Positions 8,553-49,441 of a stretch of DNA of 64,000 nucleotides are shown here, piece by piece (within the stretch, counting starts at the first letter, position 1; each line of letters begins with the position of its first letter). Both the position numbers and the translations under genes were made by a program. Under the pieces are notes generated by a model. It saw only the letters and a list, made by a program, of their open reading frames with translations, had not been told where the DNA came from and did not search any database. The stretch lies in NCBI GenBank assembly GCA_021788645.1, contig JAJYKK010000006.1:6022-70021 (forward strand), given 5' to 3'. This DNA is from Pseudomonadota bacterium. GTDB taxonomy: Bacteria; Pseudomonadota; Gammaproteobacteria; Burkholderiales; JAKAFK01.

Positions 8553-9302
8553 ATGACGAAAGGATGGCCCGGAACGAAGCGGATATGGACGATCGCCCTG
8601 ATGTGTGCGGCTATGGGAGGCGGGGCACAGGCCCAAGGGTCAACCGCCCTAGGCGTCGACCCGATCCTGAACTTCAATTTCAATGGCAGCTTCAGCATGT
8701 ATGATTCGACCGGCGCATTGGTGGGCGGGGACAGCACGCTGTCCGGAAGCATACAACTGGACACCGCCACCTTCGGCGGGACAGCCACCATGGCGGATCC
8801 GTCGCCGTTTTTCGGCTCCCACTGGTACGCGCACGATATTCAGATCTCGGCCACGCCTGACCTCGCCAACGGGAGTTTCCTGGCGAATTCCCACATGCTG
8901 TTCGACTGGGGGCCGGCGACAACGGCGAGTGCCTGCGGGCTTGCGGTCTGCGATTACAGCATCTACACCCAATTCCAGATTGCGCCTGCCGTCAATTTGA
9001 CCCTCGCGTCGTGGACCAGCCTCACAAGCGGGGTTCCGTTCAGCGTCACCACCACCGACGCAGACGGCGACGGGATTCCGGGAAACCAAATCACGTACGG
9101 GCCATTCAAGGGGTTCTCGCCCGCGTTCGGGGGTACCGCCACGTTTAAAAATCTCGGCCTAGGCTACATCGCCAACAACAACATCCCCGCCGTCGATCCT
9201 ACTCCCCTGCCGGGCACCGCCTTGCTCCTCGGGTCTGGGCTCCTGGGCCTCGTGGGTCTCGCACGCAGCCGCAAGAACCCGCCCCACCGAGCACGCGCAT
9301 AG
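8553..9302 (+). CDS. Secreted protein with exosortase-type C-terminal sorting domain (PEP-CTERM/VPLPA-CTERM-like)
   Basis: 249 aa. It has an N-terminal signal peptide (WTIALMCAAMGGGAQAQG) and a Gly/Ser/Thr/Asn-rich body. The C-terminus is ...VDPTPLPGTALLLGSGLLGLVGLARSRK. Confidence 0.85.
   Translation: MTKGWPGTKRIWTIALMCAAMGGGAQAQGSTALGVDPILNFNFNGSFSMYDSTGALVGGDSTLSGSIQLDTATFGGTATMADPSPFFGSHWYAHDIQISATPDLANGSFLANSHMLFDWGPATTASACGLAVCDYSIYTQFQIAPAVNLTLASWTSLTSGVPFSVTTTDADGDGIPGNQITYGPFKGFSPAFGGTATFKNLGLGYIANNNIPAVDPTPLPGTALLLGSGLLGLVGLARSRKNPPHRARA
9192..9299 (+). other. C-terminal sorting signal (P-L-P motif, TM helix, basic cluster)
   Basis: VDPTPLPGTALLLGSGLLGLVGLARSRKNPPHRARA has the tripartite exosortase-substrate architecture, but the canonical Glu of P-E-P is absent. 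Confidence 0.8.
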
Positions 9303-9607
9303 CCCCGGGCGGGGTGCGTGTAGCCCGCCGCAATGCGCCCTCCGCGCTCCCCATTTTTCCTTCCGCCGGGGCACGCCCCTCGGCGCCGCCCGCAGGGCGC
9401 GCGCGCTGTCGAACACCGCCGTTCTCCCTGCGGCGGATTGGACGCCTCTGCTCTTTATTTTCCGCGCCCTCGCTTGGCCCTAGACCCATGCGACGACAGA
9501 GGCCCTAATAACAATGCCGTATACATACTGTCGGCGTTTTTTACACAATCGATCGTCATCACCAGAATCACTATATCAATACTCTCTAAATCAGCCAGAT
9601 AGGTAGG

Positions 9608-9623
9608 TGGCATTCTTCTTGCT
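9608..9623 (+). promoter_or_regulatory. Sigma-54 (-24/-12) promoter candidate for cargo gene 2
   Basis: TGGCATTCTTCTTGCT matches TGGCA...TTGCT with exact GG-N10-GC spacing. It lies at the end of an AT-rich tract, 88 nt upstream of the ATG at 9710. Confidence 0.6.
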
Positions 9624-9709
9624 AATCGTATAGCCGCCGCTTTGTCACGGCACCGTTAGGCCGCGCCAATGCGGTCGTAGGGATCACCACTAGAGAACTG
9701 GAGAGCGCA

Positions 9710-10405
9710 ATGATCAGAGAATGGATGGCAACGAGAGGACGTTGGGAGGCGATGGCGATGGTCGGTTTGTGCCTATGCGCGGCTCGCGCGCATGCATCGT
9801 CGAATTTCGACCCCGCCCTCCTCGGGCCTGGCTTTTTCGGTTCGCGGGCGGTGACCGAATGGCACGGCCAGGGCCGCCGGGCCCTCGCCCACTGGGACAT
9901 GTTCTCCGACGGTCTCGGCTTCCGTGCGGGGTCTCAAGTCACGGGCAGAAGGGCTTACGACCTGCGGCGCATCGCCATGCGCGCGCGCAATGGGGCCCTC
10001 CCGCACGACGGGCGCGGCTTGTTTAGGCGGTGGACGCTGTGGACTGCCTCATGCCTCGGCGGAGAGTGCCTGTCGCGCGACGACACGCGAACCGGAACCG
10101 CCTCGTGGCGCGCGGGGGACCTCACGCCATGGGACGGCTTACCTGACGGTCCACGCTTCTCGTTCCGCCTGGGACCGAGGCGATGGGACCGCCTGGCGGA
10201 TGATCCGTTTGCGCGCCCCCCAGTCCGTTGGCTCGTCCCGGCAGGGGCGAGCGGCCGGCTCACGGTCGCACTCGTGAGGCTGGACCGGATCGCAGACCGC
10301 TCACCTTCCGTCGCTCCGGCCCCAATCCCCGCGCCTGTGACGCTATTGGGGTCCGGACTCCTCGGGCTGGTCGGCTTCGCGCGCCGGCGTCCGCCCCGCC
10401 TGTAG
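9710..10405 (+). CDS. Secreted Arg/Trp-rich protein with exosortase-type C-terminal sorting domain
   Basis: 231 aa. A signal peptide (MAMVGLCLCAARAHA) and the C-terminal ...APIPAPVTLLGSGLLGLVGFARRRPPRL are in the same frame. GGAGAG lies 8 nt before the ATG. Alternative in-frame ATGs are at 9725 and 9752. Confidence 0.7.
   Translation: MIREWMATRGRWEAMAMVGLCLCAARAHASSNFDPALLGPGFFGSRAVTEWHGQGRRALAHWDMFSDGLGFRAGSQVTGRRAYDLRRIAMRARNGALPHDGRGLFRRWTLWTASCLGGECLSRDDTRTGTASWRAGDLTPWDGLPDGPRFSFRLGPRRWDRLADDPFARPPVRWLVPAGASGRLTVALVRLDRIADRSPSVAPAPIPAPVTLLGSGLLGLVGFARRRPPRL
10313..10402 (+). other. C-terminal sorting signal (I-P-A-P motif, TM helix, Arg cluster)
   Basis: In APAPIPAPVTLLGSGLLGLVGFARRRPPRL, the helix LLGSGLLGLVG-[LF]-AR is nearly identical to that of cargo 1. 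Confidence 0.75.
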
Positions 10406-11334: not shown

Positions 11335-11344
11335 GGGCGGATCC

Positions 11345-15446: not shown

Positions 15447-17033
15447 TTAGTTCGGGACGTAGCTGGTCAGGCGCGGAACGGCGGCCCGCGCAAAACTGCT
15501 CAGGATCCGGTCGGCACGGCTGGGCGATTCGCCGGGCGAAAGTTCAGTGGTCAGGCGAACCAGCGCGCCGTCGGTGCGGTTTTGCCGGAGCGCATCCCAC
15601 AGCAGGTACCATTTCGCCAGGTATTCATTGGTAATGATCCTCCCCCGCTCCTGGAACCAGTAATACACAAGCTCCTTGACGTTGCCCTTGGCGATGACCA
15701 GACGATTCACGCGTAGCGGGTGTCCATTGACCCGCACGCCGCGCACCGCTCTTTGCGTCAGGCTCGTGATCTCCCAGCCGCCCCCGGGGATGCAGGTGCG
15801 CGGCGAGTGCGCCGACGCGCCTTTGCGCTGAGAGGCATAATAGGCCACATAGAAATTGACCACCTTGCGCGCCGTGCCGACATAATCGGCCAACAGGTAG
15901 TCCGTGAACTTGAGCTGCTTGATATAGATGTCGGCCATCTGTCCGCCGTGCCCTTGCCAGCCCGGAAGGTGCATCGGGAAGGTCGCAAAGTCTTGTCGCT
16001 TAGGCGTGACTTCGGCCCGCTTGGGGAGCGCGGTGGTGGCCAAAGCGACCAGGGCGAGGAGCCCCACCGCGACCAAATAGGAGGTGGGTAGCCGTCTGAC
16101 GCGGGCGCCGCGCGCGCGGGCACCGCGCGGCCACTCCAGCCCAAACACTTCGGCCAGATGCCGCCTGTCTCTGCCCACGCGGGCCATGACCCACATCTCC
16201 CCCACCAGGAGCGCCGTGCAGATCATGAAGATCACCCATCCCTCGAAAAGATGGAGAAAGCCCTCCGCCATCGCGCGGCCCCACCAGTCGACCGTCACGC
16301 CCACCAAGCCGATCCGGAAACTGTTCATCAGCACGGTCATGGGCACGGTGGAGACAAACACCAGCGCCCGTTTCCAGAGCGGCGCCTGAAACAGATAGGC
16401 CGCCACGAACCCCAGGGTCATCAGCGGAAACAGGTAGCGCAACCCGCTGCAGGCGTCGACCACCTGCAATTTGAGGCTGCCGAGATCGATGACGTTGCCG
16501 GCAAGATAGACGCTGTCCCCGAACGCCCGGATGAAGTCCACCCCCAACCGGGAGGACAACAGCTCGAGCTGCTCGGAGAGATTGTTGTAAAGGAAATTCG
16601 GCAGCGGAATCATCAGCCCCAGGATCAGCACGGGAATGCCGATCACCCGGAAGGCCCGCGGCCCCATGAAGGCCAGCGTCACGCCTGCCAGCACGACGAG
16701 AAAGGCGTATTGCACCAGAATGTACAGGGCGGACAGCTGCCCTGCGCCATACACCAGGGCGCCCAGCAGCACCACCGCGACACCCATCCAGGACCCGTCG
16801 AACGGCAAGCGCGCGAGGCGGTCCGACCGCTGCCAGACCAGGAACAGCGCAATCAATGGGATCAAGGGACCGTAACTGTATTCCGCGTGCGCTGGACTGA
16901 ACCACCATTGCACCATGACCGCGAGCCCGGCGTGGAAGACGCTCGCGAGAAGAAGCGCGGCCAGGGCCATGGAAGCCCATGCCGCGACCGACAGTTTCCA
17001 AAGGCTGGGTTCGTGTCCGCTCGCCACATCCAT
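15447..17033 (-). CDS. Exosortase fused to an EpsI-family domain
   Basis: 528 aa. Exosortase signature residues appear in VVDACSGLRYLF (Cys), LMNSFRIGL (Arg) and FLHLFEGW (His). The C-terminal ~200 aa carry the EpsI motif HSPRTCIPGGGW. Confidence 0.9.
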   Translation of the reverse strand: MDVASGHEPSLWKLSVAAWASMALAALLLASVFHAGLAVMVQWWFSPAHAEYSYGPLIPLIALFLVWQRSDRLARLPFDGSWMGVAVVLLGALVYGAGQLSALYILVQYAFLVVLAGVTLAFMGPRAFRVIGIPVLILGLMIPLPNFLYNNLSEQLELLSSRLGVDFIRAFGDSVYLAGNVIDLGSLKLQVVDACSGLRYLFPLMTLGFVAAYLFQAPLWKRALVFVSTVPMTVLMNSFRIGLVGVTVDWWGRAMAEGFLHLFEGWVIFMICTALLVGEMWVMARVGRDRRHLAEVFGLEWPRGARARGARVRRLPTSYLVAVGLLALVALATTALPKRAEVTPKRQDFATFPMHLPGWQGHGGQMADIYIKQLKFTDYLLADYVGTARKVVNFYVAYYASQRKGASAHSPRTCIPGGGWEITSLTQRAVRGVRVNGHPLRVNRLVIAKGNVKELVYYWFQERGRIITNEYLAKWYLLWDALRQNRTDGALVRLTTELSPGESPSRADRILSSFARAAVPRLTSYVPN

Positions 17034-17878: not shown

Positions 17879-19024
17879 TCATAGGGTGTGCGGGACCTCG
17901 CGGGCCACGCGGGACAGGAAGGAAAAGGTCTCGTGGGCGCATCGCCTCCACGAATAATCCTTCGCATACTCGCTCCCACAGCGGGCCAGCCGCTCCCGTC
18001 GCGTGCGATTGCGGACCAGTTCGCGCAAGGCGGCGGTCATGCTCCCCTGATCCTCAGGATTGAAATAAACGCCCGCATCGCGCAACACCTCGGGCATCGG
18101 ACCCGAATCGGAACAGGCAATCGGGGCGCCGCAGGCCATCGCCTCCAGCAAGATGATCGGCAGATTCTCGCAGGTCGAGGCGAAGATGACGCAGTCTGCC
18201 TGGGCCGCATAAGCCGGAAGCCCGTCGTAGGTCACCGCGCCGTGGTAACGCACGAAACGGCGCCCGGGATCGAAACGCCTCATCGATTTCATGAGCTTGC
18301 GCAATGCCGGGGGATAGGAAGGACCGACCAGATCCAGGTGCACCGGCAGACCTTCGCCGCGCAGACGCGCGACCGCCTCCACGACGCGCCATTGATGCTT
18401 GTACATGTCGACGATCGAGACGTACAGGAATCTCAGCGGGCGATCGAACGAATAGGCCTCTAGGTCCCACTGCGGCCTGGGAGGAGAAAAGAACTTCGCG
18501 CCGATGCCATGGGGTATCACCGCAGTCCGCGCGATGGCCCCTACCGCGTGCTCGACCCTGGCTTGCGCGTAGCGTGTCAGGAAGATCACGCCATCCGCAC
18601 GCCTGAAGGTCCGTGCCTGCGTCAAGCGCAGGGCCATGAGGCGCACCGCCACCGGCGACAGACCGAAGCGCAGGAGTTCCCGGGCCTCGAACGGCAGCAG
18701 GTTCTGGGACATGGTCACCACCGGCACGCGGCTCTTGGCGCAGGCGCCGCCCGGTACGAACAGGATATCGCAGCGCCGCGCCGCGAGTGTCGGAAGCACG
18801 CGCCGCTGCCAATAAATGCGCCGAATGAGAGGCCCTTCCAGGTCACCCACTGGGGCATGCTCGATCCAGTCCCTGGAAGGCAGGCGGCTCAAGGTCGCCC
18901 GCGCGCCCCAGACCACGACCTTCTCGAACCCGGCTTCCCCTGGATCGGCGGCATGCAGGAGTTCCGCGAGGTGCGTGAGGCCGCCACCTGCCCGGATGTT
19001 CGACGCATCGATCCCCAGCCTCAT
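17879..19024 (-). CDS. Glycosyltransferase family 4 (GT1-fold)
   Basis: The ORF is trimmed to the ATG at 19024 (MRLGIDASNIRAGGGLTHL...), a typical start of WbdA-like GT4 proteins. The C-terminal half contains FASTCENLPIILLEAMACGAPI (E-x7-E). Confidence 0.85.
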   Translation of the reverse strand: MRLGIDASNIRAGGGLTHLAELLHAADPGEAGFEKVVVWGARATLSRLPSRDWIEHAPVGDLEGPLIRRIYWQRRVLPTLAARRCDILFVPGGACAKSRVPVVTMSQNLLPFEARELLRFGLSPVAVRLMALRLTQARTFRRADGVIFLTRYAQARVEHAVGAIARTAVIPHGIGAKFFSPPRPQWDLEAYSFDRPLRFLYVSIVDMYKHQWRVVEAVARLRGEGLPVHLDLVGPSYPPALRKLMKSMRRFDPGRRFVRYHGAVTYDGLPAYAAQADCVIFASTCENLPIILLEAMACGAPIACSDSGPMPEVLRDAGVYFNPEDQGSMTAALRELVRNRTRRERLARCGSEYAKDYSWRRCAHETFSFLSRVAREVPHTL

Positions 19025-19040
19025 GGTGTGGCCCGACCCG

Positions 19041-19835
19041 CTAGGCACAGACCCATGACCCGTCCGGCTCATAGCCCAGTCTGATCAGGTTGTGGCCGGC
19101 GTACTGGTGAAACAGCTCGCGCGCCTCCTTCGAAAATTTGTTCTTCCAGTCCCCGGCCGTGCCCTTTCTCAGGAAGCTGCCTTTGACTTCCGTGCCGGCG
19201 CGTCTGCCGGCCACTGCCTGAAAGCAAAACCGCGCCTTCGCGCCTTCGAGCCGCGCGAGGTCGGCCGCACGCCCCGTCACCCGCTCGATCGGCTCCTTGA
19301 GCGCCGCCGCCGCGTCTTCCAGGAGATGTTCGTACTTGACCATCACGGCGCGGGGCCGGTCCGCCCAGGAGTCAATGAACTCATTCCAATTGAAATGAAA
19401 CAGCCGCCTGTTTTCGACGGTGAACAGATACTCGATCACGCGCGGCAGGTTGGCCTCCACATCCTCGTAGTCCCGGAATCGATTCTGCTTGCGCGCGCGC
19501 TCGACCAGGAGGGGAGAATTCTTTTCGTTGTGAAAGAACATGTGGTAGTACGCCGACACCATCACGTCCCGCCCGTCGCGAACGACGCAGAAGACGTTCC
19601 TCATGAGGGGCGAATAGAGGCTGTGGCAATGCATGATGCAACTCTCTATCCTGGGTGCGCAATTGCGCGGAAACGGCACGTCGAAGTAATGGGCCAGCAT
19701 CTGTCCGACCCATGTCCCGCCGGACTTGGGATATTCGGTCACGATATAAAGCGGCAAGACGTGGGACAACGTATGCTTCATGACCATGCGCTGAAGCGCG
19801 TCCATCTTGATGGCGAAACGAGGCCGATGATCCAC
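19041..19835 (-). CDS. PAPS-dependent sulfotransferase-domain protein
   Basis: It contains the 5'-PSB loop YPKSGGTW, the 3'-PB region VVRDGRDVMVSAYY, and the C-terminal FLRKGTAGDWKNKF characteristic of sulfotransferase domains. The start is uncertain, with in-frame ATGs at 19835, 19805, 19784 and 19778. Confidence 0.8.
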   Translation of the reverse strand: MDHRPRFAIKMDALQRMVMKHTLSHVLPLYIVTEYPKSGGTWVGQMLAHYFDVPFPRNCAPRIESCIMHCHSLYSPLMRNVFCVVRDGRDVMVSAYYHMFFHNEKNSPLLVERARKQNRFRDYEDVEANLPRVIEYLFTVENRRLFHFNWNEFIDSWADRPRAVMVKYEHLLEDAAAALKEPIERVTGRAADLARLEGAKARFCFQAVAGRRAGTEVKGSFLRKGTAGDWKNKFSKEARELFHQYAGHNLIRLGYEPDGSWVCA

Positions 19836-19927
19836 TGTTTTTCCCCTTCTGCAATGTCGCTTTGATCCTGCGGGAGGTTACGCCCCGCCCGCGCGTAAAA
19901 ACGCCCCCCTCGGCCGACGCGAACGCG

Positions 19928-21067
19928 TCAGCCGAGGGGGGCCGACAAGATGCTGTCGTACAGTTCGCCATAGCGACGCGCCACCGCCGCCACGCCGAAG
20001 CGCTCACGGACCGCGTTTGTCGCCGCTCCCGTGGGGTAACGCCGCTCCTCGGCAAAGCGCTTCAGGCGCCGGCCGAGGGCATCTGCGTCGTCGACGGGCG
20101 CCCAATAGGCGACCGGCGCCCCCAGTTCCTTGAGCGCCGGGATATCCGAGAAGATGCAGGGCAGGCCGGTTCCGACCGCTTCGATGCCCGCCAGAGGCAG
20201 GCCTTCCCAGCGGCTCGGCATGACGAAGCAGTCGGCGGCGACCAGCCAGTCGGGAACATCGGACCGAACGCCATGGAATAGGATGCTCGGGTCGCCCGCC
20301 GCCAACGATTCCAGCTCCCCGCGCAGATCGCCGTCGCCGACGAGGTGCAACATCGCTTGCGCTTCGCCCAGGCGCGAGCGCCGCCAAGCCCTGATCAGGA
20401 CGTCGTGCGCCTTCGGGGCACCGGCGGCGCGACCGCCCTGGTGCGCATCCATGCGTCCGACCGACAGGTAGTGCAGGCGCGCCACGTCCAGCCCCAACGC
20501 GCGCTTGCGGGCCTGCGATGCCTGCGCGTCCCGCACCGGCCACGCAAAACGAACGCCGTTGAGAATCGTCGCAATCTCACCGGTCACCAGCATGCGGCAT
20601 GCGTCCGCGGCTTCGTGCCCGCAACCGATCGTGATCCGCGCCCGATTGCTGCGCAAGGCCAGGCGCTTGTCCCAGCGCACCTTCAATGTCGTGCTGTGGA
20701 CCGTCCTAACGATAGGGGGCGCCGCGCCATAAATCATCCGCATCAGACCATGGGCGAGGTCCGTATTGGCCGTGTGCAAATGCACCAGAGCAGGCGCCAG
20801 GCGACGAATTTCTCTCCCGTACCAGAGGACGGTTCTCAGGCCGAGACGGGCTGTCGGCCCGGTGGCGAAGATGACGCCACCCGCCTCAAGCTGCCTTGCC
20901 ATGGCGCGCCCCACCGGATCGGTCCTGGAACTGAGCACCGCCAAGCTCACCGCCACGCCCTGCTGCTTGAGCTCGCACAGCAGATCCACGACGAAGCGCT
21001 CGGCGCCTCCTGTGCACAGCGCGCCGACGACATGCACGATGGCGTGCTCTTGCGCAGCACGCGTCAT
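19928..21067 (-). CDS. Glycosyltransferase family 4
   Basis: 379 aa. VHVVGALCTGGAERFVVDL... and the E-x7-E region PSRWEGLPLAGIEAVGTGLP are present. Confidence 0.85.
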   Translation of the reverse strand: MTRAAQEHAIVHVVGALCTGGAERFVVDLLCELKQQGVAVSLAVLSSRTDPVGRAMARQLEAGGVIFATGPTARLGLRTVLWYGREIRRLAPALVHLHTANTDLAHGLMRMIYGAAPPIVRTVHSTTLKVRWDKRLALRSNRARITIGCGHEAADACRMLVTGEIATILNGVRFAWPVRDAQASQARKRALGLDVARLHYLSVGRMDAHQGGRAAGAPKAHDVLIRAWRRSRLGEAQAMLHLVGDGDLRGELESLAAGDPSILFHGVRSDVPDWLVAADCFVMPSRWEGLPLAGIEAVGTGLPCIFSDIPALKELGAPVAYWAPVDDADALGRRLKRFAEERRYPTGAATNAVRERFGVAAVARRYGELYDSILSAPLG

Positions 21068-22383: not shown

Positions 22384-22388
22384 AGTCC

Positions 22389-34830: not shown

Positions 34831-34960
34831 GTCGTAAAAATAATTATCTCGAGCGCAGTTCTATGCAAATCGGTATAGCCACTATAGTTCACGTTTTTCA
34901 ATCCGCAACCGCGAAACGCGCCGCCATCCGTCCATTAGACCATTCAAATAGGCTAATGGC
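34831..34960 (-). promoter_or_regulatory. AT-rich putative promoter/regulatory region of the EPS operon
   Basis: There is a sharp drop in GC immediately upstream of the first EPS gene (...tgtcgtaaaaataattatctcgagcgcagttctatgcaaatcggtatagccactatagttcacgtttttcaatcc...). I could not define a convincing consensus promoter by eye. Confidence 0.35.
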
Positions 34961-35221
34961 GCGGAAGGCATGACTGTCGGCCCGGCGCGACAAGACGAGC
35001 GGCCATTGGCGGCGGAACCAAGGCCACGTTGGCGATTGAGGTTCCGCGCGCCGGTTCGCGCTCGGCCGTCCATTAGGGTCGGGCGAGACGAGTCCGGCAC
35101 GCCACCTTGGCGGATGTAGGGTCTTTTTAGGGTTCGGCGATGCGCCGTCGGAACGGGGGGACCCGGATCACCTGCGCGGGCGGGAGGGGATAGGCGCTGC
35201 AGGCTCGAACGGAGGGGGTTG

Positions 35222-40729: not shown

Positions 40730-41929
40730 TCAGTGCACCAGCTGATTCATGTCGAAGATGGGCAGCAAGATCGCCAGCACGATGACCAGCACGGTCGCGC
40801 CCATCGCCAGAATAAGGGCCGGCTCGAGCAGCGTGACCAGCATGGAGATGCGCCCTTCGACTTCGAGCGCCTGTTGCGAGGCCACGCGCTCCAGCATCGC
40901 CGCCAGCTGCCCGCTCGTCTCGCCGCTCGCCACCAGGTGGACCATCATCGGCGGGAACAACCCGCTATGCGACAGGGCACGCGCAAGACTGACCCCTTCG
41001 CGCACCTTGCGCATGGCCTCCTCGGCAGCCAGCCGCATCGGCACGTTGCCCACGACCGCGGCGGCGGCACCGAGCGCGCTCAGGAGCGGCACGCCGCTAC
41101 CCACCAGGATCGCGAGGCTCGCCGCGAAGCGCGCGGTATTGAGCGCGCGCACCATGCGTCCGACCACCGGCACACGCAGCACCCGCTCGCCCACAAAGCG
41201 GCGCCAACGCGCCTCCTTCAGCGCCCGACGCACCGCCAGCGCGGCGAGCGCGGCTCCCGCGACGAGCACCGGCCAAGCGTGCGCAAACCACTGGCTGAGC
41301 GCGATCAGGGCGCGGGTGAGCCAGGGAAGCGGCTGGCCGCTGTCCTCGAAGACGCCGGCTATTTGCGGCACCACATAAGTGAGCAGGCCACCGACCACCA
41401 GAACCGCCACCGTCGTCACGATGGCGGGATAGACGAAGGCAAGCCCCACTTTCTGCCGCAGCCGCTGCCGGTTGTCGAGATAGTCGGCCAACCGCAGCAT
41501 GACGGCGCCCAGCTGGCCCGAGCGTTCGCCGCTGTCCACCAGCGCCAGGTAGATCGCCGGGAAGGCCCGGGGCTGCTTGGCCAGCGCCTGACCGAGGCTC
41601 AAGCCCGCCAGCACGTCGGCGCGGACGGCCGCGAGCAGCTGCCGCACGGCATGGGATTCCATATGCTCGATACAGGCCGTCAAGGTCCGCTCGACGGTGA
41701 GCCCGGCGTTGAGCAAGGTCGCGAGCTCGCGCGTGAGGACACCCAGCTGCGCCGCACCCGGACCGGCGCGCCATGCTCTCGGGGCGCCCCCCGACAGGGC
41801 ATCGAGGGTCACGGCGGTCAGTCCCCGCGCGCGCAGGCTCAGGCGCGCCTGCCGGGGCGTATCGGCCTCGAGCACGCCCTTCACGAGATGCCCGTCGTCC
41901 CCCACCGCCTCATATTTGAAGCCCGCCAT
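40730..41929 (-). CDS. gspF: Type II secretion system inner-membrane platform protein F
   Basis: 399 aa. MAGFKYEAVGDDGHLVKGVLEADTPRQARLSLRARGL is followed by the duplicated T2SF domain. Confidence 0.95.
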   Translation of the reverse strand: MAGFKYEAVGDDGHLVKGVLEADTPRQARLSLRARGLTAVTLDALSGGAPRAWRAGPGAAQLGVLTRELATLLNAGLTVERTLTACIEHMESHAVRQLLAAVRADVLAGLSLGQALAKQPRAFPAIYLALVDSGERSGQLGAVMLRLADYLDNRQRLRQKVGLAFVYPAIVTTVAVLVVGGLLTYVVPQIAGVFEDSGQPLPWLTRALIALSQWFAHAWPVLVAGAALAALAVRRALKEARWRRFVGERVLRVPVVGRMVRALNTARFAASLAILVGSGVPLLSALGAAAAVVGNVPMRLAAEEAMRKVREGVSLARALSHSGLFPPMMVHLVASGETSGQLAAMLERVASQQALEVEGRISMLVTLLEPALILAMGATVLVIVLAILLPIFDMNQLVH

Positions 41930-41950: not shown

Positions 41951-43501
41951 TCAGGCGGCCGCCTCCTTCTCCTTGAGGCGGCCATGTTCTTCGGCGACAC
42001 GCAGAACCTCCTCCATGCTCGTCTCGCCACTCGCCACCCAGCGCATGCCGTCCTCGCGCAGGCCGATGAGGCCGTGGGCGCGCGCATAGGCGCGCAAGGT
42101 CTCCTCGGAGTCCCGATTGTGGATCTTGCGCAGCATGCCTTCATCCATGACCATCAGCTCATAGATCCCCGTACGTCCCCGATAGCCGGTCCCATCACAG
42201 GCCGCGCAGCCGACCGGGTGATAGACCACGGGCGGCGCCGCCCCAGGCGCGAAGAGCGAGCGTTCGGTCGCATCCGGAGCGCGGGCGCTGCGGCATTCCG
42301 GGCACAACCGCCGCACGAGCCGCTGCGCCAGGACCGCCCGCAGGCTGGAGGCCAGCAGGAACGGCTCGACCCCCATATCGGTCAGGCGGGTCACCGCGCC
42401 GAGCGCATCGTTGGTATGCAGGGTCGCCAGCACCAGATGCCCGGTGAGACTCGCCTGGACCGCGATCTCGGCGGTCTCCAGGTCGCGAATCTCGCCGATC
42501 ATGATGACGTCGGGATCCTGGCGCAGGATCGCGCGCAGCGCCCGCGCGAAGGTCATGTCGATGCGCGGATTGACCTGCGTCTGGCTGATGCCGGCGAGAT
42601 CGTATTCGATCGGATCTTCGACGGTCGCGATGTTGAGCACGGTCTCGTCCAGCCTCGAGAGCGCGGCATACAACGTGGTGGTCTTGCCGGAGCCGGTCGG
42701 GCCGGTCACCAGAATGATCCCGTTCGGATGGTGAATCGCTTCGTCGAGGGCGGCCATCGTCCCCGCGTCAAGCCCCAGGGCAGGGAGCTCGAGGCGGCCT
42801 TGCAGCTTGTCGAGCAGCCGCAGCACGACGCGCTCGCCGTGGCCCGTGGGCAGGGTGGACACGCGCACATCGACGGGGCGGCCGGCGATGCGCAGCGTGA
42901 TGCGTCCGTCCTGGGGCAGCCGCTTTTCCGCGATGTCGAGTTCGGCCATCACCTTGATGCGCGACACGATCGCCGCATGGAGTGCCCGCTGCGGTTCGAT
43001 CACCTCCCGCAACAGCCCGTCGACGCGAAAGCGGACGACCGAGCGCGTTTCATAAGGCTCGATATGGATGTCGGAGGCCTGCTCGCGCAGCGCCTGCGTG
43101 AACAGCGCATTGATCAGGCGAATGATCGGCGCCTCGTCCTCGACATCGAGCAGGTCGCCCACCTTGGGCAATTCCTGGGCCAGTTGCTGCAAGTCGAGAT
43201 CTTGCTCAAGATCGACCATGAGGCTCGCCGTCTGGTGGTCAGGGCGCGAGTAGGCCTGCGCGAGGCAATCCTCGAAACGGCCTGCGGGGATGACGCGCAC
43301 CGACAAGGGCGCCCCGAGCACACGCCGCGCCTCCACCAGCATCTCGGCCCGCACGCCCTCGCGCGCCCAGACCTCGATCTCCGCGCCGCGCGCGCGCGCC
43401 GCGATGATGCCCTTGGCCTTGGCGATCGGGTAGGGCAGCCGAACGGCGATGGCCGGGTCCGGCGCATCCCGTTCATCGGGCGCATCCGAGAGGATGCTCA
43501 T
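41951..43501 (-). CDS. gspE: Type II secretion system ATPase E
   Basis: 516 aa. It has Walker A VTGPTGSGKTTTLYAAL, Asp/His boxes, and the tetracysteine motif CPECR...CAACDGTGYRGR. Confidence 0.97.
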   Translation of the reverse strand: MSILSDAPDERDAPDPAIAVRLPYPIAKAKGIIAARARGAEIEVWAREGVRAEMLVEARRVLGAPLSVRVIPAGRFEDCLAQAYSRPDHQTASLMVDLEQDLDLQQLAQELPKVGDLLDVEDEAPIIRLINALFTQALREQASDIHIEPYETRSVVRFRVDGLLREVIEPQRALHAAIVSRIKVMAELDIAEKRLPQDGRITLRIAGRPVDVRVSTLPTGHGERVVLRLLDKLQGRLELPALGLDAGTMAALDEAIHHPNGIILVTGPTGSGKTTTLYAALSRLDETVLNIATVEDPIEYDLAGISQTQVNPRIDMTFARALRAILRQDPDVIMIGEIRDLETAEIAVQASLTGHLVLATLHTNDALGAVTRLTDMGVEPFLLASSLRAVLAQRLVRRLCPECRSARAPDATERSLFAPGAAPPVVYHPVGCAACDGTGYRGRTGIYELMVMDEGMLRKIHNRDSEETLRAYARAHGLIGLREDGMRWVASGETSMEEVLRVAEEHGRLKEKEAAA

Positions 43502-43551: not shown

Positions 43552-45666
43552 TCAGTGACCCGCCGCCGGTGGCCCCGGTGGCTCGACGCTCCGGGGGACG
43601 CTGGCGGGCCCTTGTGGGGCGACCTTGGGCATGAACGGGCCCGGCACGGTCGGCGTGGGATAGTTGGGGAGCAGCACGCGGTGCGGCAGGGCCGCCGCGC
43701 CCTCCTGGCTCATGATGTAACGATAGCGCTGGTCCGTGAGCGCCGCACCCGCCCCGGGGCCGCGCAGGATAATCGGCCGCAGGAAGACCATGAGATTCGT
43801 CTTGACGCGTTTCCGGGTTTCATACCGGAACAGCCCCCCCAGGATGGGAATGCTGCCCAGCACCGGCACCTTGTCCACGGCGTTTTCCACGTCGTCCTGG
43901 ATCAGTCCGCCGAGGACGATGATCTGCCCGTTGTCGACGAGGACGGTCGACTTGAGCGAGCGCTTGTTGGTGATGATCCCGGCCGGGTTCGACGTGTCCG
44001 CGATGGCCGAGACCTCCTGATAGATGGTGAGCTTCACGGCGCCGCTTTGCGTGATCTGCGGCTTGACGTCCAGGGTCAAGCCGACGTTCTTGCGCTCGAT
44101 CGTCTGAAAGGGCGTGACCGTCGCGGAGGCAGCCGTCCCCGCCGCCCCATAGGCGCCGGTCTGGGCATAGCTGCCGGTGATGAAGGGGACGTTCTGGCCC
44201 ACGACGATCTTCGCGTCGTGGTTGTCGAGGGTCAGCAGGTCCGGGGTCGAGAGGATGTTGGCGTTCGAGTCCTGCTCCAGGGCGCGCGCGAGCGCCGTCA
44301 GCCCGGTCACTTCCTGCCCGCCGATGGTAAGGCGCTGCAAAAGACCAATGTTGAGGCCCAAGGCCGGCAGCACGGCGCCGCTGGCAATGCCGGCAGACAG
44401 GTTGATGAGGTTCGCACCGCCGCCTCCCGTGGCGACCCCCGTGGAGAAATTAGTCCCTCCCACCAGGGCCGAATTGCCGCTCTGTCCCAACACCGACTGC
44501 CACTGGACGCCCAGCTCCGCCGCCCTGTTGAGCGTGACCTCGGCGATCAGCGCCTCGACGTAGACCTCGGCCGGCCGCACGTCGAGCCGGTCGATCACGG
44601 CCCGCAGGGAATTATAGACATTGTCCGGCGCCGTCACGATCAGCGAGTTGGTCGCGGCGTCGGCGCGGATGACGCTGTTGCCGGCCGTCACCGGCGCCGC
44701 CGCGGGGGCCGACGGATAGGGCGCCGGGGGGTGCGGCGCGGCGGCGGCGCCCGGCGCCCCTGACAGAATCCCGGCCAGGGTCTTGGCAAGGTCGACGGCA
44801 TTGGCGTTCTTGAGATATATGACGTGCATGTTGCCGCCCGCGCTGGTCGGCACGTCCAGCTGATAGGCGAGCCTGCGCACCTTGTCGATCATCGCGGGAT
44901 CCGGGGCGCGAACGATGAGGCTGTTGGTGCGGGCATCCGGATCGATGACCAGGCTGTCCGCCGCCGGAGAGAGGCCGGCAGGGAGCGGGACGCCGTTAGG
45001 CAAGTGCGGCGCTCCACCGCCGCTTCCAAGCACGGTGGAAATCTGCTGCGCAACGTCCACCGCGGAGGCGTAGTGCAGGGCAATGACCGCGACGTTGCTC
45101 TTGGCCGGCTGATCCACCGCATCGATGATGGCATCGATGCGGTGGATATTTTCCGCGTAGTCGGTAATCACCAGCGCATTGGCGGTCGGATCGGCCGCGA
45201 TGGCGTTGTTGGGCGAGATGAGCGGGCGCAGCACCGGTATGAGCTGCTCCGCGGAGGCATACAGGAGCGGACGCACCTGCGTGATCACGCGGTCGCCATG
45301 GACAGGCACCGAGGTGCCCACGGTCGGGCTGAAGTTGTGCTTCGCGTCGGCTTCCGGCACGATCTTGACCCCGCCCGGGCCGGGGACGGCCGCGAATCCC
45401 TGCATGCGCAGGGCGGCCAGCAGCATCCGATATGCGGTGGCGCGCGAGACCGGATGCGTCGAGACGATATCGATCGTCCCGCCGACCTTGGGATCGATGA
45501 TGAAATTCTTGTGCGCCAACATGCCGACGGCCTTGATGACCGAGACGACGTCGGCATGAACGAAATTGAGCGTGACGCGCGTCGTCTCCTGTGCCCGCGC
45601 GGCCAAAGGAGAAAGACACCACAAGAGCAAAACGGCACGGCATGCGAGACCACCACCCCTCTTCAA
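43552..45666 (-). CDS. gspD: Type II secretion system secretin D
   Basis: 704 aa. It has a signal peptide, N0-N3 domains (VTLNFVHADVVSVIKAVGMLAHKNFIIDPKV...) and the secretin core (VLVDNGQIIVLGGLIQD...KVPVLGSIPILGGLFR). Confidence 0.97.
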   Translation of the reverse strand: MKRGGGLACRAVLLLWCLSPLAARAQETTRVTLNFVHADVVSVIKAVGMLAHKNFIIDPKVGGTIDIVSTHPVSRATAYRMLLAALRMQGFAAVPGPGGVKIVPEADAKHNFSPTVGTSVPVHGDRVITQVRPLLYASAEQLIPVLRPLISPNNAIAADPTANALVITDYAENIHRIDAIIDAVDQPAKSNVAVIALHYASAVDVAQQISTVLGSGGGAPHLPNGVPLPAGLSPAADSLVIDPDARTNSLIVRAPDPAMIDKVRRLAYQLDVPTSAGGNMHVIYLKNANAVDLAKTLAGILSGAPGAAAAPHPPAPYPSAPAAAPVTAGNSVIRADAATNSLIVTAPDNVYNSLRAVIDRLDVRPAEVYVEALIAEVTLNRAAELGVQWQSVLGQSGNSALVGGTNFSTGVATGGGGANLINLSAGIASGAVLPALGLNIGLLQRLTIGGQEVTGLTALARALEQDSNANILSTPDLLTLDNHDAKIVVGQNVPFITGSYAQTGAYGAAGTAASATVTPFQTIERKNVGLTLDVKPQITQSGAVKLTIYQEVSAIADTSNPAGIITNKRSLKSTVLVDNGQIIVLGGLIQDDVENAVDKVPVLGSIPILGGLFRYETRKRVKTNLMVFLRPIILRGPGAGAALTDQRYRYIMSQEGAAALPHRVLLPNYPTPTVPGPFMPKVAPQGPASVPRSVEPPGPPAAGH

Positions 45667-45693: not shown

Positions 45694-46200
45694 TCAGTCC
45701 GCTCGTTGCAGGTGGCGCGCGTAACGCCCTTGAACGGCCATTGGCGCCGCCGCCGGCCCGGGCAGCGCGACGCGGGCCATGGTGCCGCCATCATCCACCA
45801 GCACATGGTGGGCATACACCGCGCGCAGGATCACGCCCGGCGCAAGCGCGGCCCCCACCGCGACCGGCTCGGGTGCGCCGCCGACTCTGCGGATGATCGC
45901 ATAGCCGGGCTGTCCGTCCCCCCCCGCCATGACCCCTTCAAGTTCGACGCCGACGGCCACGGACAATGGTTTCATCTCGGCGCGCTGCGCCGTCCCGAAG
46001 AGGTGTCCGTCGGCAATGCGCTCGGCGTCCGAATCGGCCGATGCCGGGTTCGAAGAGATCCACAGGGGCGGCGCCGAAGGGGCCAAGAACACCCACGTCC
46101 AGTAGGCGGCGCACCAACACAAGGCCACGCCGAGGCCCGCCGTCAAAACCCATACCCATGAGGGCTTGGCGGTATGCGCGAACAATCTGACTGGGGCCAT
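45694..46200 (-). CDS. gspC: Type II secretion system protein C-like (short; TM plus HR domain, no PDZ)
   Basis: 168 aa. It is the first gene of the operon. It has an N-terminal TM (WVWVLTAGLGVALCWCAAYWTWVF) and an HR-like segment LEGVMAGGDGQPGYAIIRRVGG...GVILRAVYAHHVLVDDGG. The assignment rests on position and pattern. Confidence 0.62.
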   Translation of the reverse strand: MAPVRLFAHTAKPSWVWVLTAGLGVALCWCAAYWTWVFLAPSAPPLWISSNPASADSDAERIADGHLFGTAQRAEMKPLSVAVGVELEGVMAGGDGQPGYAIIRRVGGAPEPVAVGAALAPGVILRAVYAHHVLVDDGGTMARVALPGPAAAPMAVQGRYARHLQRAD

Positions 46201-46566: not shown

Positions 46567-47133
46567 ATGGCCCGTGCACGGACAGCGGCGCCGATCGCGG
46601 CATGCCTTTCCATCTGTCGCATGGCCCTCAAGCCGGGCTGGCGGTTCCTGGCAAACAGCCGCCGCGCAGCTCCGCGAACCCGCAGTTCAGCCGCCACCCG
46701 CGTGCGGGCGGGGCTCCGCTTCGGGCTGCTTCTCCTGGGCGGCCTCTCGGCCGTGGCAACCTCTTGCGCCAACGTCGGCGCCCCATCTCGAGGGAACGGG
46801 GTACTCACCCCGATGGTGGCCTCCCTTTGCGCCTGCGCGAAGCAAGGCACCGCGCCGACGCGGTGCGGCGGCGTTCCCCGCAACCTGATCCGCACCGATG
46901 CCGCCGGGCGAATTCAGGTGGACGCCGCCTATTCTTGCAGCATTAACGCGCCAACCCACGCCGCGAAGGCTGCGGGTCTGCAGATCTCGGCGCAAGTCCA
47001 TGCCGCGCCGTTTTGTGTCATGGAGGGCTGGATCGAGCCCGCCAGGCTCGCAACGCTGGCGCGTGTCCCGGGGATAAGAACCATCTCGTTGCCGAATTAT
47101 GCAAGGGCCCGGGACCAAAAGATGCGTCGGTAG
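46567..47133 (+). CDS. Small secreted protein paralogous to the N-terminal domain of the adjacent protease
   Basis: The frame is supported by 30/72 ungapped identities (hand alignment) between its C-terminal domain and residues of the downstream protease. The start is uncertain: ATG at 46567, ATG at 46621, or GTG at 46702. The GTG gives a signal-peptide-like RAGLRFGLLLLGGLSAVATSC. The ORF ends 22 nt before the protease ATG. Confidence 0.55.
   Translation: MARARTAAPIAACLSICRMALKPGWRFLANSRRAAPRTRSSAATRVRAGLRFGLLLLGGLSAVATSCANVGAPSRGNGVLTPMVASLCACAKQGTAPTRCGGVPRNLIRTDAAGRIQVDAAYSCSINAPTHAAKAAGLQISAQVHAAPFCVMEGWIEPARLATLARVPGIRTISLPNYARARDQKMRR
46897..47112 (+). repeat. Copy 1 of a ~72-aa paralogous two-Cys domain (in the small ORF)
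   Basis: DAAGRIQVDAAYSCSINAPTHAAKAAGLQISAQVHAAPFCVMEGWIEPARLATLARVPGIRTISLPNYARAR. Confidence 0.75.
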
Positions 47134-47155
47134 CGAACCTAAGGGAGAGAAAATC

Positions 47156-49441
47156 ATGACCCTGGCAGGCCCAGTGGGGGCCGTCGTGGAAATCCTCGTG
47201 GCGGCTTGCCTGCTTGCCCTCCTGGCACCGGCCCAAGTTGCCTTTGCCAGCGCCTGGCAAGCGCACATTTCGACACGCCTATCGGCTGAACTGCAGCGGG
47301 AAGGCATCATCCCCTCGACCGTTGCGCCCGCCGCCCGCCGGACCCTGTCCGTAGGCGGCGCCCGCTTCGACGCGGCGGGCGGCATCCAGGTGGACATTTC
47401 CCATCCATGCGGACAGCCCGTCGACGCAGGGTCGCTGGCCGCCGCCGGCTTTCATGTCAGCGCCACCGCATCGGCACCTCCCTTTTGCGTCGTGGAAGGG
47501 TGGGTCAGTGCGAGCAGCGTGCCGTATCTCGCGAGCCTGTCCAACGTCACGCTGATGGACCTGCCGCACTATGCGCGCGTCAGGGGCGGTGCGTCTTTCT
47601 CGCCTCGAACGGGCGGCGGTGTCGCGACGATGGCCGGCACGACCCCGATTGACGGGAATGGCGTGAGCATCATGAACGCCGACCTCTACGCCTCCAGCAC
47701 GGGCATCAACGGGAGCGGCGTAACCGTGGGCGTCATCTCTGACGATGATACGAGCCTCGCCACCATACAAGGCCGAGGAGAACTGCCGGGCAATATCACG
47801 AATTATTGCAGCGCCGCAGATCCTTGCAGCGGGTCGACTTTCACCAACACGAACCTGACCCCCACCGATGAAGGCACGATGATGCTCGAGGAAGTGCATG
47901 CCGTGGCCCCTGGCGCGGCACTCGCCTTCTGCGGCCCCCAGACCGATGTCGAGTACGTCCAATGCCTGCAGGCCTTCGCGAACGCCCACGTCAACATCGT
48001 GGCCGACGACCTGGGGTTTCTGGGCGAGGACATCATGTCCAACCAAAGCACATTTACCCAAGGCGTCCAGAACGTCCTGCAAGGCGATTCAGCCCTCACC
48101 CTGTTCAGCGCATCGGGTAACAACGAGGCCGGCTACTGGGAGGGCAATTACGCGCCGACACAGAATACAACAGGCCTCACGCTCACCTGCAATGGGCACA
48201 CGGACGCCTATGTGGAAAATTTCGGAAGCGCCGTTTTCGACCCCTACACCTTCTACAACGACTCATGGGGCGTGTTCCTCGAATGGGATGATCCTTACTC
48301 GAGCAACATCAGCAACTTTGACCTCTACGTCGTCGACCCGTCGAACCACAACGCCATCGTTGGCTGCGTGAGCGGAAGCAGCCAGGCCGATCCGGTGGAT
48401 GCGCTGTGGGCGAATGGGCAGTTCACTGCCGGCAAGACCTATGATATCTACATTGGCAACGACGGATCGTTGGCTGGGAAATTTCTCAAGCTCGACATCA
48501 TGGCCGACGGGGCGAGCTCGTTGGGTACGACCAGCACGGGGGGACTGGATTCGCCCCAGCAATTTGCGATCGGCGATCAGCCCATCGGGGCGGTCAATGG
48601 TTCCGACGGGGTCGGTGCGAGCATCGAGCCATACAGCCAGCAAGGGCCTATCAATCTCGCGTTTTGGAACTCAAGCACGACCCTGAGCAACCCGCTCCAA
48701 CAGATCGATGCACCGGTGCTCGTCGCCCCCGATGGGATCTACGTCGACAATTCGGGAACCGACTTCTCGACCAATATGTTTTTTGGGACATCTGCGGCCA
48801 CACCCAATGCCGCTGCATCGCTGGCGTTGCTCGAAGGCGCCTTCAAAAGTCTGTCCGCCAGCCAACTCATGGGAGACCTGGAGCAGGGTGCCTATCCGCT
48901 CAGTCCCCCATGGAACGGCACATTCGGTTATGGGCGCGTCGATGTGTGGAATGCGCGCCAACAGATTTCGCTGCCCACCGTTAGTCCCATCAAGAACCTC
49001 ACGATGACCGATGGGCAAAGCGCAAGCACCTCGGTCATGGTCAGCGGAACAGCACCTCTGACGATCAGCGTGTCATCGGCCAACAGCATCCTCATCCCCG
49101 CCGCGAACGTTGCGCTCTCCCCATCCAATTGCGGGCAGTCGGGATACAGCAACAACTGCAGTCTCACGATAACGCCCGTCTCGGGGCAAAGCGGCACCAC
49201 CAACCTCACCGTCACCGTCGCCAACAGTTCCAACGAATCGCAGGCGACAACCTTCACCGTGACCGTCGACCCGCCTGCCCTCACGGGTGGAAGCGCAGGC
49301 GGCGGGGGCGGCGGCGGGGGCGGGTGTACCCTCGGGCACGCAGGGCGTCCTGATCCTGTGCTTCCGCTCCTGGTCATCGCCGCTCTCTTCGGGCGCCTGA
49401 GACGACGCCTCCGGCCACACGGCAACGGCAGCCCGAAATAG
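47156..49441 (+). CDS. Subtilase-superfamily (S8/S53-like) serine peptidase with N-terminal two-Cys domain, Ig-like domain and C-terminal Gly9-Cys sorting signal
   Basis: The ORF is trimmed to the ATG at 47156, preceded by GGGAGAG. The signal peptide is MTLAGPVGAVVEILVAACLLALLAPAQVAFA. Peptidase motifs are GVTVGVISDDD, DEGTMMLEEVHAVAPGAAL, FSASGNNEAG and FFGTSAATPNAAASLALL. Confidence 0.85.
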   Translation: MTLAGPVGAVVEILVAACLLALLAPAQVAFASAWQAHISTRLSAELQREGIIPSTVAPAARRTLSVGGARFDAAGGIQVDISHPCGQPVDAGSLAAAGFHVSATASAPPFCVVEGWVSASSVPYLASLSNVTLMDLPHYARVRGGASFSPRTGGGVATMAGTTPIDGNGVSIMNADLYASSTGINGSGVTVGVISDDDTSLATIQGRGELPGNITNYCSAADPCSGSTFTNTNLTPTDEGTMMLEEVHAVAPGAALAFCGPQTDVEYVQCLQAFANAHVNIVADDLGFLGEDIMSNQSTFTQGVQNVLQGDSALTLFSASGNNEAGYWEGNYAPTQNTTGLTLTCNGHTDAYVENFGSAVFDPYTFYNDSWGVFLEWDDPYSSNISNFDLYVVDPSNHNAIVGCVSGSSQADPVDALWANGQFTAGKTYDIYIGNDGSLAGKFLKLDIMADGASSLGTTSTGGLDSPQQFAIGDQPIGAVNGSDGVGASIEPYSQQGPINLAFWNSSTTLSNPLQQIDAPVLVAPDGIYVDNSGTDFSTNMFFGTSAATPNAAASLALLEGAFKSLSASQLMGDLEQGAYPLSPPWNGTFGYGRVDVWNARQQISLPTVSPIKNLTMTDGQSASTSVMVSGTAPLTISVSSANSILIPAANVALSPSNCGQSGYSNNCSLTITPVSGQSGTTNLTVTVANSSNESQATTFTVTVDPPALTGGSAGGGGGGGGGCTLGHAGRPDPVLPLLVIAALFGRLRRRLRPHGNGSPK
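47369..47584 (+). repeat. Copy 2 of the ~72-aa paralogous two-Cys domain (protease N-terminus)
   Basis: DAAGGIQVDISHPCGQPVDAGSLAAAGFHVSATASAPPFCVVEGWVSASSVPYLASLSNVTLMDLPHYARVR. Confidence 0.75.
49286..49438 (+). other. C-terminal sorting signal of a different class (Gly9-Cys, hydrophobic helix, Arg cluster)
   Basis: GGSAGGGGGGGGGCTLGHAGRPDPVLPLLVIAALFGRLRRRLRPHGNGSPK is tripartite, but it has a poly-Gly/Cys signature instead of a P-x-P motif. Confidence 0.7.

Follow-up and report, generated by a model that had tools for sequence, protein, structure and literature searches.

We found that a 64,000-nucleotide stretch of a Burkholderiales genome (contig JAJYKK010000006.1, positions 6,022 to 70,021, assembly GCA_021788645.1; hereafter the window) places three envelope modules side by side: an operon for a type II secretion system (T2SS), gspC-N; an exopolysaccharide (EPS) locus with the exosortase XrtD, accompanied by two genes for secreted proteins with exosortase-type tails; and, divergent from gspC, a gene for a subtilase-like (clan SB) protein with a JDVT-CTERM sorting tail. 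On balance we favor the view that these are neighboring modules and that the T2SS most likely handles the JDVT-CTERM protein. Two observations argue for this: mrtJ, the gene for the protease assigned to JDVT-CTERM tails, lies inside the gsp operons of two relatives, and GlyGly-CTERM tails are found on homologues of the window's protein. Together they make a physically linked sort-and-secrete unit of JDVT-CTERM protein and T2SS appear well supported, whereas for the exosortase cargo such a link has clade-restricted synteny as its sole basis and is offered as a testable hypothesis. An earlier sequence-only reading had proposed that this T2SS may be the dedicated outer-membrane route for the sorted cargo and/or for the large secreted proteins of the EPS locus.

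Genes were mapped from codon-position GC content (the window has ~66% GC) and family scans. Family calls were made with NCBIfam/TIGR and Pfam models, and a number in brackets directly after a bit score is the curated cut-off. A close relative (~90%) is represented by the stretches L001/L004 and L092. An Rfam scan of the window gave no match.

The JDVT-CTERM protein and MrtJ

When all six frames of the window were scanned with regular expressions, credible tripartite C-terminal tails were found in only three open reading frames (ORFs), 8553-9302, 9710-10405 and 47156-49441. The third is the subtilase-like protein. Its tail scored 40.5-47.2 bits (27) on the JDVT-CTERM model NF033191 and contains a single Cys followed nine residues on by DP (CTLGHAGRPDP puts the D at +9), together with a Leu-rich helix and an Arg cluster. 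Thus, the flanking protease with a second class of tail that had been noticed from the sequence proved to carry a JDVT-CTERM signal above cut-off. Peptidase_S8 matched this protein at 23.5 bits (21.8) over the Ser-motif C-terminal half only, where GTSAATP is present, and the usual subtilase HGT position, as we read it, is EGTMMLEE, near EGTMMLEEVHAVAPGA; EGTxMLE is conserved in homologues. This could mean a non-canonical triad or an atypical enzyme of clan SB. A PDB sequence search with it gave no match. Just upstream, a small ORF (46699-47133) encodes a product that aligns over its last 74 amino acids (aa) with residues 70-143 of the protease-like protein (42% identity, BLASTP E = 9e-17). It may be what remains of a duplication, or a separate copy of the N-terminal (pro-?)domain.

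A full-library search returned 57 homologues of the protease-like protein at E <= 1e-30. The best full-length homologues end in GGGG-x-LD-hydrophobic-RRR tails, and 5 of 10 homologue tails (among P0159-P0208) passed the GlyGly-CTERM cut-off, while the window's own tail gave no match to that model (TIGR03501). Judged from these tails, the sorting tag appears to have been swapped within one protein family, with GlyGly-CTERM in homologues and JDVT-CTERM in the window. Because one family carries either tag and both tags point to the T2SS, we regard this protein as the best candidate for T2SS-linked sorted cargo. The swap also suggests that the two tags are interchangeable tickets to one secretion route.

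The position of mrtJ points in the same direction. It was found in L089 (L089:4727-5209; Sulfurirhabdus autotrophica, Sulfuricellaceae, 43% GC) and in L090 (L090:1433-1921; a metagenome-assembled genome labelled Gammaproteobacteria, 54% GC), where it encodes 160-162 aa, overlaps the end of gspF by a shared boundary base and precedes gspG; translational coupling with gspF would be expected from this arrangement. The two products scored 111.7 and 119.7 bits (75), respectively, on NF033192 (MrtJ), whose description assigns this CPBP glutamic intramembrane protease to JDVT-CTERM tails. Unlike L089 and L090, the window has a 45-nt gap between gspF and gspG with no gene inside, as does the ~90% relative. 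A remnant of mrtJ was sought near the protease-like gene and in the gspF-gspG gap, and none was found. Caballeronia has a short gspC between gspF and gspG. Across all fetched loci, the search for JDVT-like tails gave just two spurious matches.

Conservation of the gsp-EPS junction

Conservation was followed from both sides of the junction. From the EPS side, a metagenome scan with an alignment of PolyExport, the gene that faces gspN, gave 80 loci, which were then compared by tblastn with all window proteins; about 53 had enough upstream sequence to be informative. From the T2SS side, a GspN-profile search was followed by inspection of the gene context of the matches. The 416-aa outer-membrane protein (OMP) of the EPS locus had been dropped as a probe, with just 10 homologues and 2 genome loci; because its matches were too sparse, the PolyExport and GspN alignments were used instead.

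The adjacency of gsp and EPS genes noticed in the window recurs in several sulfur bacteria that are only distantly related. The gspN-PolyExport junction, conserved in five lineages with the window counted, was found in L089, L090, L091 (= L040) and L094, where gsp...L-M-N is followed by PolyExport-OMP-ChnLen-TyrKin-ATPase (ChnLen, chain-length determinant; TyrKin, tyrosine kinase), and with the same arrangement in the ~90% relative (L001/L004). Genomes with the junction range from 43 to 66% GC, and between the two clades that carry it GspN is 26-31%, GspL 36-46% and PolyExport 53-60% identical. Of two further EPS-locus genes, the TIGR03790 gene is kept beside the EPS module in L090, and the gene for the 985-aa LamG protein (LamG_985) is absent from L089 and L090.

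The picture among EPS loci in general was different. In 29-30 of the ~53 informative loci the gene immediately upstream of PolyExport is PrsT, and other genes occupy this position in 22 (rotamase, sugar transferase, deacetylase, response regulator, and divergent PEP-CTERM or Ig-like proteins); antisense genes, for a TIGR03790 protein in L013 and a WecA-like protein in L080, were also seen there. gspN was found upstream in only one (L040), and the other EPS loci showed no Gsp match at all, even at E < 0.01. For example, in L074, L018, L024 and L016 PolyExport is 75-80% identical to that of L091, as close as in T2SS-linked loci, yet gsp is missing. Three XrtD neighborhoods (L006, L007 and L008) had no T2SS within +/-10 kb, which is weak evidence against linkage, since a T2SS 18 kb away would lie outside this range. 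In the outgroup Caballeronia, OEP and MarR genes follow gspN and there is no EPS junction. Since the junction occurs in a diverged GspN lineage but is absent from most EPS loci, it is a long-lived trait of one betaproteobacterial T2SS lineage rather than a general property of XrtD loci.

The order of genes within the EPS locus also differs from the usual one, XrtD-WecA-PrsT-PolyExport-OMP-ChnLen-TyrKin-ATPase. XrtD-WecA-PrsT is directly upstream of PolyExport in L032, L038, L045, L059, L064-L066, L081 and L083, and this trio is kept in L006, L008 and 20+ metagenome loci; L007 has XrtD and a WecA-like gene, then an epimerase and a fragmented TPR gene. In the window, the trio lies at the far end of the EPS locus and the gsp operon takes the slot upstream of PolyExport. 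Given the common order, the EPS locus of the window is a permuted version.

Cargo genes, promoters and gene content of the window

The two exosortase-type cargo genes that the sequence-only reading had placed at 8553-10405 were recovered, with tails that match exosortase-signal models only, all below cut-off. Cargo 1 and cargo 2 scored 14.5 and 19.4 bits on VPLPA-CTERM (25.35), and 12.3 and 15.3 bits on PEP-CTERM (16); the tails end in ...TPLPGTALLLGSGLLGLVGLARSRK and ...IPAPVTLLGSGLLGLVGFARRR, respectively. Cargo 1 is 86% conserved in L092 with the tail kept. Cargo 2 is 54% identical to L092:16552-17232, where signal peptide and tail are kept and neighboring genes are 82-96% identical, and its body appears to evolve fast.

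Each cargo gene is preceded by a sigma-54-like -24/-12 element (GGGCCCGGTTCTTGCT and TGGCATTCTTCTTGCT; 8463-8478 for cargo 1 and 9608-9623 for cargo 2). The motif GTCG-N3-TTTTTTACAC lies 70-78 bp further upstream (8393-8409 and 9530-9546) and occurs in perfect form within the window only at these two genes. All four sites are conserved in L092. Sigma-54-like matches are at chance level across the window (25 found, 28.7 expected), and only the conserved cargo-gene sites were kept. The combination resembles an RpoN promoter preceded by an enhancer-binding-protein site, and the published dependence of PEP-CTERM genes on RpoN fits these promoters; no PrsK/PrsR pair is present in the window. Besides, a perfect sigma-54 consensus, TGGCACAAATGTTGCT, was seen at 1745-1760 on the minus strand, ~150 bp upstream of a DsrE2 sulfur-carrier gene (972-1598).

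The spacer between gspN and the EPS locus had been described as ~390 bp and AT-rich. The length holds (391 bp), and AT-richness applies to the last 130 bp only (45% GC), as the whole spacer has 61% GC against ~66% for the window. In the window and L001, the spacer hardly differs over the ~150 bp that precede the PolyExport start and is ~65% identical over the rest; the near-invariant block is likely the EPS operon promoter with its 5' leader. A canonical sigma-54 promoter was considered in the spacer and rejected, since TGGCTAT-N-TTTGCA has the wrong spacing. In junction-bearing loci, the spacers are 137-391 bp long with the same gene orientation; they could not be aligned across clades, and L089, L091 and L094 have only a TAGTATA-like element in common. 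The 137-bp spacer of L089 contains a good sigma-70-like promoter, and terminator-like hairpins follow gspN in L090. The cargo-gene motifs were not found upstream of gsp in the window. With a conserved block upstream of the EPS operon and promoter motifs specific to the cargo genes, the gsp, EPS and cargo modules look separately controlled.

The 12 gsp genes that had been listed from the sequence alone were all identified in the order gspC-D-E-F-G-H-I-J-K-L-M-N, on the minus strand (46200 to 35222); neighbors either overlap by 4 nt or are at most 50 nt apart, and most score above NCBIfam equivalog cut-offs. For the pseudopilins GspG-K all models were above cut-off, and TIGR02532 prepilin motifs were also detected. 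No prepilin peptidase (GspO/PilD) was found among the annotated genes of the window; its gene is often located away from the gsp operon. An ORF at 46236-46895 on the minus strand was treated as non-coding because it is Arg-rich, has low GC at third codon positions (GC3) and has no family match.

Similarly, the 17 genes of the exosortase/Wzx-Wzy EPS locus, on the same strand as gsp from 34830 to 10597, were present as had been proposed. The locus contains Wzx, a polysaccharide co-polymerase (PCP) split into two proteins, an OPX protein and a WecA-like transferase of the Wzx/Wzy pathway. A polytopic protein (21064-22437), the putative Wzy, has no family match and is 95% conserved in L092. The L089 ortholog of the 416-aa OMP weakly matches TIGR03016, a PEP-CTERM-associated OMP. 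The TIGR03790 and LamG_985 proteins have signal-peptide-like N-termini and no C-terminal sorting tail. No XrtA-specific equivalog was passed: the exosortase scored 161 bits against 208, and the ATPase, chain-length determinant, tyrosine kinase and export protein were likewise below cut-off. Because the accessory proteins fall short of these cut-offs, the locus resembles the XrtA/PEP-CTERM EPS system in how it works but does not belong to it. The ~41-kb cluster of the sequence-only reading is contiguous, and its left limit at 8553 has to be moved, as EPS-type genes run on to ~1957; the genes of 1957-8330 also accompany XrtD loci in L032, L045, L059, L064 and L088.

An 845-bp gap between a glycosyltransferase family 4 (GT4) gene and xrtD (17034-17878, minus strand) has no convincing gene and is poorly conserved in L092, with indels, except for a ~70-bp invariant island (CGCCTTTAAATTTCGTGAAAGTCTCCTATGATGGATGAAAAAGCGCCCTATTT), which may be an internal xrtD promoter or a tiny ORF; in L092, an ORF that starts from ATGATG in this island encodes ...DKVPLPIALGG. 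At the other end of the window, a gene at 50013-50903 on the minus strand, convergent with the protease-like gene and ~570 bp past its stop codon, encodes a 296-aa protein with a signal peptide, a beta-barrel-like C-terminus (...LGLRYTY) and no family match. The right flank from ~51.2 kb is housekeeping (lysA, argH, a LytTR response regulator and hemCDXY). A LytS-like sensor in this flank is suggested by its position beside the LytTR regulator, with no family match.

Features of the window (positions in nucleotides; cut-offs in brackets after bit scores)
Feature	Position	Strand	Evidence
Leftward EPS extension: dehydrogenase fusion, WecB, heparinase II/III-like, WcaI-like glycosyltransferase	1957..8330	-	family matches
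Cargo 1	8553..9302	+	signal peptide; tail ...DPTPLPGTALLLGSGLLGLVGLARSRK
Cargo 2	9710..10405	+	signal peptide; tail ...APIPAPVTLLGSGLLGLVGFARRR
Methyltransferase	10597-11529	-	last gene of EPS locus
PrsT TPR protein	11345-13792	-	TIGR02917 317.2 bits (312.2)
WecA-like priming transferase	13799-15436	-	Glycos_transf_4 140 bits
XrtD exosortase, fused EpsI domain	15447..17033	-	TIGR04152 547.2 bits (400); TIGR02914 149.9 (42.8)
Wzx, GT4, Wzy-like protein, GT4, sulfotransferase, GT4	17879..25032	-	Polysacc_synt_3 72.7 bits, Sulfotransfer_1 60.6 bits; GT4 matches
LamG/GH123_N-like protein, 985 aa	25029-27986	-	Laminin_G_3 82.7 bits, GH123_N 24.5
TIGR03790-family protein	27967-~29277	-	244.7 bits (67)
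Pepcterm-type ATPase	29280-30152	-	best match TIGR03015 278 bits (below 324.5)
Tyrosine autokinase	30156-31004	-	best match TIGR03018 180 bits (below 230.65)
Chain-length determinant	31019-32797	-	best match TIGR03007 252 bits (below 278.85)
Beta-barrel OMP, 416 aa	32862-34112	-	weak porin/SlipAM/Omp85 matches
Short OPX polysaccharide export protein (PolyExport)	34213-34830	-	TIGR03027 149.6 bits (below 180); EpsY 121.6
gspN-EPS spacer	34831..35221	-	391 bp
gspN	35222-36037	-	Pfam T2SSN 77 bits (29.6)
gspM	36034-36534	-	weak YghD/GspM match; L001 ortholog, 71% identical, carries PF04612
gspL	36531-~37820	-	TIGR01709 195 bits (65)
gspK	37820-38752	-	NF037980 282.5 bits (130)
gspJ pseudopilin	38749-39369	-	TIGR01711 107 bits (65)
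gspI pseudopilin	39366-~39776	-	TIGR01707 69 bits (44)
gspH pseudopilin	39763-~40275	-	TIGR01708 85 bits (80); Pfam GspH too
gspG pseudopilin	40250-40684	-	TIGR01710 190 bits (89)
gspF platform protein	40730..41929	-	TIGR02120 459.5 bits (424)
gspE ATPase	41951..43501	-	TIGR02533 703 bits (630)
gspD secretin	43552..45666	-	TIGR02517 598 bits (351)
gspC	45694..46200	-	168 aa, no PDZ domain; Pfam T2SSC 65.2 bits (27)
Small ORF upstream of protease-like gene	46699..47133	+	lipobox-like ATSC; GC3 0.78
Subtilase-like (clan SB) protein, JDVT-CTERM tail	47156..49441	+	tail GGGGGGGGGCTLGHAGRPDPVLPLLVIAALFGRLRRR; divergent from gspC

Secretion routes and known systems

The wider proposal holds that the T2SS is the dedicated outer-membrane route for XrtD-processed cargo and/or the LamG and TIGR03790 proteins, with gsp and eps as one supercluster. 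We consider it unlikely, and export of the XrtD cargo by this T2SS, taken by itself, equally so. It draws on the gsp-EPS adjacency, which all sampled members of the GspN lineage share, with short spacers and one orientation, on the lack of a terminator after gspN in the window and L089, on the use of the T2SS by two other C-terminal sorting systems, and on the signal peptides of the LamG_985 and TIGR03790 proteins, the second of which is retained beside the module in L090. Besides, the way of exosortase cargo across the outer membrane is still open in the literature, as the sequence-only reading had stated; our searches on PEP-CTERM with T2SS or type II secretion found no experimental test of a T2SS requirement. 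However, ~52 of the 53 informative EPS loci have no upstream T2SS, even some whose PolyExport is a close match to that of L091, nor was one seen near XrtD in the three neighborhoods inspected; the cargo genes and the EPS operon have conserved promoter regions of their own, with the cargo motifs not upstream of gsp; hairpins follow gspN in L090; LamG_985 is absent from two junction-bearing relatives; and the polymer would have its own exporter. The proposed T2SS route is thus partly supported, best for the tail class of the flanking protease, while for the exosortase part it stays a hypothesis. T2SS use by the XrtD cargo, LamG and TIGR03790 proteins is possible, and the conserved synteny makes it more attractive. 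That the T2SS of this lineage is a specialised surface-display machine for two unrelated sorting systems at once, JDVT-CTERM/MrtJ and XrtD/VPLPA-CTERM, we regard as quite improbable; if it were so, mrtJ would have been absorbed into the gsp operon, the EPS locus would have stayed joined to the 3' end of the operon, and the T2SS would be the long-sought outer-membrane route of exosortase cargo.

It is also rather doubtful that a general T2SS simply lies next to the EPS locus and the protease-like gene through inherited gene order without functional meaning. The standard gspC-N set with its equivalog-level scores, the confinement of the adjacency to one lineage (it is missing in Caballeronia and most EPS loci) and the separate promoter-like region of each module would all fit such neutral neighbors, but mrtJ overlapping the end of gspF in two relatives ties the sorting protease to the T2SS lineage, the adjoining protein has a tail of exactly the class of MrtJ, and the boundary between the operons survives while GspN falls to 26-31% identity. 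From what is generally known of gene-order decay, without a formal test, such survival is unusual for unrelated genes.

Export of the JDVT-CTERM protein by the T2SS, on the other hand, is probable. We infer each transport step from the observed gene identities, synteny, tail classes and mrtJ genes in the relatives' gsp operons. The first module would be a canonical Gsp-type T2SS, gspC-N. In the second, the XrtD EPS locus would make a sulfated, Wzx/Wzy-polymerised polysaccharide that leaves by its own PCP, short OPX protein and beta-barrel porin with no need of the T2SS, and XrtD would process the two sigma-54-controlled secreted proteins with VPLPA/PEP-CTERM-like tails. In the third, the subtilase-like JDVT-CTERM protein adjoining gspC would be exported by Sec and modified at the invariant Cys; MrtJ, presumably encoded elsewhere in this genome and in relatives inside the gsp operon, would then remove the transmembrane/Arg tail, and the T2SS would move the folded protein to the surface, as for MYXO-CTERM and GlyGly-CTERM proteins.

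Several points weigh against this assignment. The catalytic status of the protease-like protein is doubtful, as the Pfam S8 match is marginal and limited to the Ser-motif half. No mrtJ was found in the 64-kb window by tblastn with two MrtJ queries (E <= 10), and the gsp operon of the ~90% relative also lacks it; in the published pairs MrtJ is adjacent to its client in 16 of 17 cases, while the window's client lies by gspC with no mrtJ within 64 kb. The L089 and L090 contexts cover gspD onward, so that a JDVT-CTERM client beside their T2SS would be outside view. In addition, no terminator-like hairpin or intrinsic terminator follows gspN in the spacer of the window or of L089, and transcription may read through from gspN into the EPS genes. 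Functional coupling of T2SS and EPS could explain why the gene order is kept in genomes so far apart, and this would favor the wider claim.

All components are of known kinds. What is new is the joining, conserved in one lineage, of a gsp operon to the 5' end of an exosortase EPS module, the presence of mrtJ inside gsp operons with a JDVT-CTERM client adjoining gspC, and the GlyGly/JDVT tag exchange within one protein family. How exosortase-processed proteins cross the outer membrane has been a question ever since the first description of the system in 2006, and this locus type offers a concrete, conserved candidate; as the junction is present in the cultured Sulfurirhabdus autotrophica, genetics is feasible. 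In the literature searched, there was no paper on exosortase XrtD (matches to this string were unrelated), and VPLPA-CTERM appeared once, in an unrelated reactor study.

Among known EPS systems, the closest is that of XrtA/PEP-CTERM (Haft 2006, PMC1569441; floc formation in Aquincola and Zoogloea, PMC9850573), with which the window shares PrsT, the pepcterm-type ATPase, chain-length determinant, tyrosine kinase and OPX protein, an exosortase within the EPS locus, and cargo genes with -24/-12 promoters. It differs in having XrtD, fused to an EpsI domain, as its exosortase in place of XrtA, in accessory proteins that fall below cut-off and in the lack of PrsK/PrsR within the window. Compared with the common XrtD-WecA-PrsT-PolyExport order, the locus is permuted, with a T2SS operon upstream of PolyExport.

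For the JDVT-CTERM protein, the precedent named in the sequence-only reading is sound: experiments have established that GlyGly-CTERM proteins, and also MYXO-CTERM proteins, need the T2SS for display at the surface. In the GlyGly-CTERM/rhombosortase system, for which later papers cite Vibrio cholerae VesB (Gadwal 2018), a serine-protease-type client depends on the T2SS and is retained at the surface after tail removal. The likeness lies in the protease-like client and in the GlyGly-CTERM tails of homologues of the window's protein; the window's tail itself has no match to that model, and no rhombosortase was seen in the window. The MYXO-CTERM/MrtX system of Myxococcus xanthus (Sah 2020; mBio 2025, PMC11980579) shares a CPBP Mrt-core protease and a Cys-containing tripartite signal, and the need for the T2SS was shown there experimentally. 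For the protease-like protein we take this system as the best mechanistic model; it differs in having dozens of clients per genome, in genes unlinked to the T2SS, and is restricted to Myxococcota. According to the literature, MrtJ is closely related to MrtX, a myxosortase verified by experiment. JDVT-CTERM/MrtJ itself (NF033191, NF033192), typically with one such protein per genome (Haft 2023 preprint, 10.1101/2023.06.07.544157), agrees with the window in the tripartite tail, the single Cys, DP at +9 and the one such protein seen. L089 and L090 differ from the published pair in that mrtJ lies between gspF and gspG, and no T2SS neighborhood was reported for the pair in that preprint. The same preprint provides a precedent in Synerg-CTERM/MrtS, in which the distribution of a myxosortase-family protease tracks a divergent T2SS; there, phylogenetic profiling in Synergistota provided the link, whereas here a sorting-protease gene lies within a proteobacterial gsp operon. 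The mrtJ genes in gsp operons and the JDVT-CTERM client beside gspC would therefore be, within the literature searched, the first gene-neighborhood evidence of JDVT-CTERM/MrtJ feeding the T2SS, and would bring a third sorting system under the paradigm known from rhombosortase and myxosortase.

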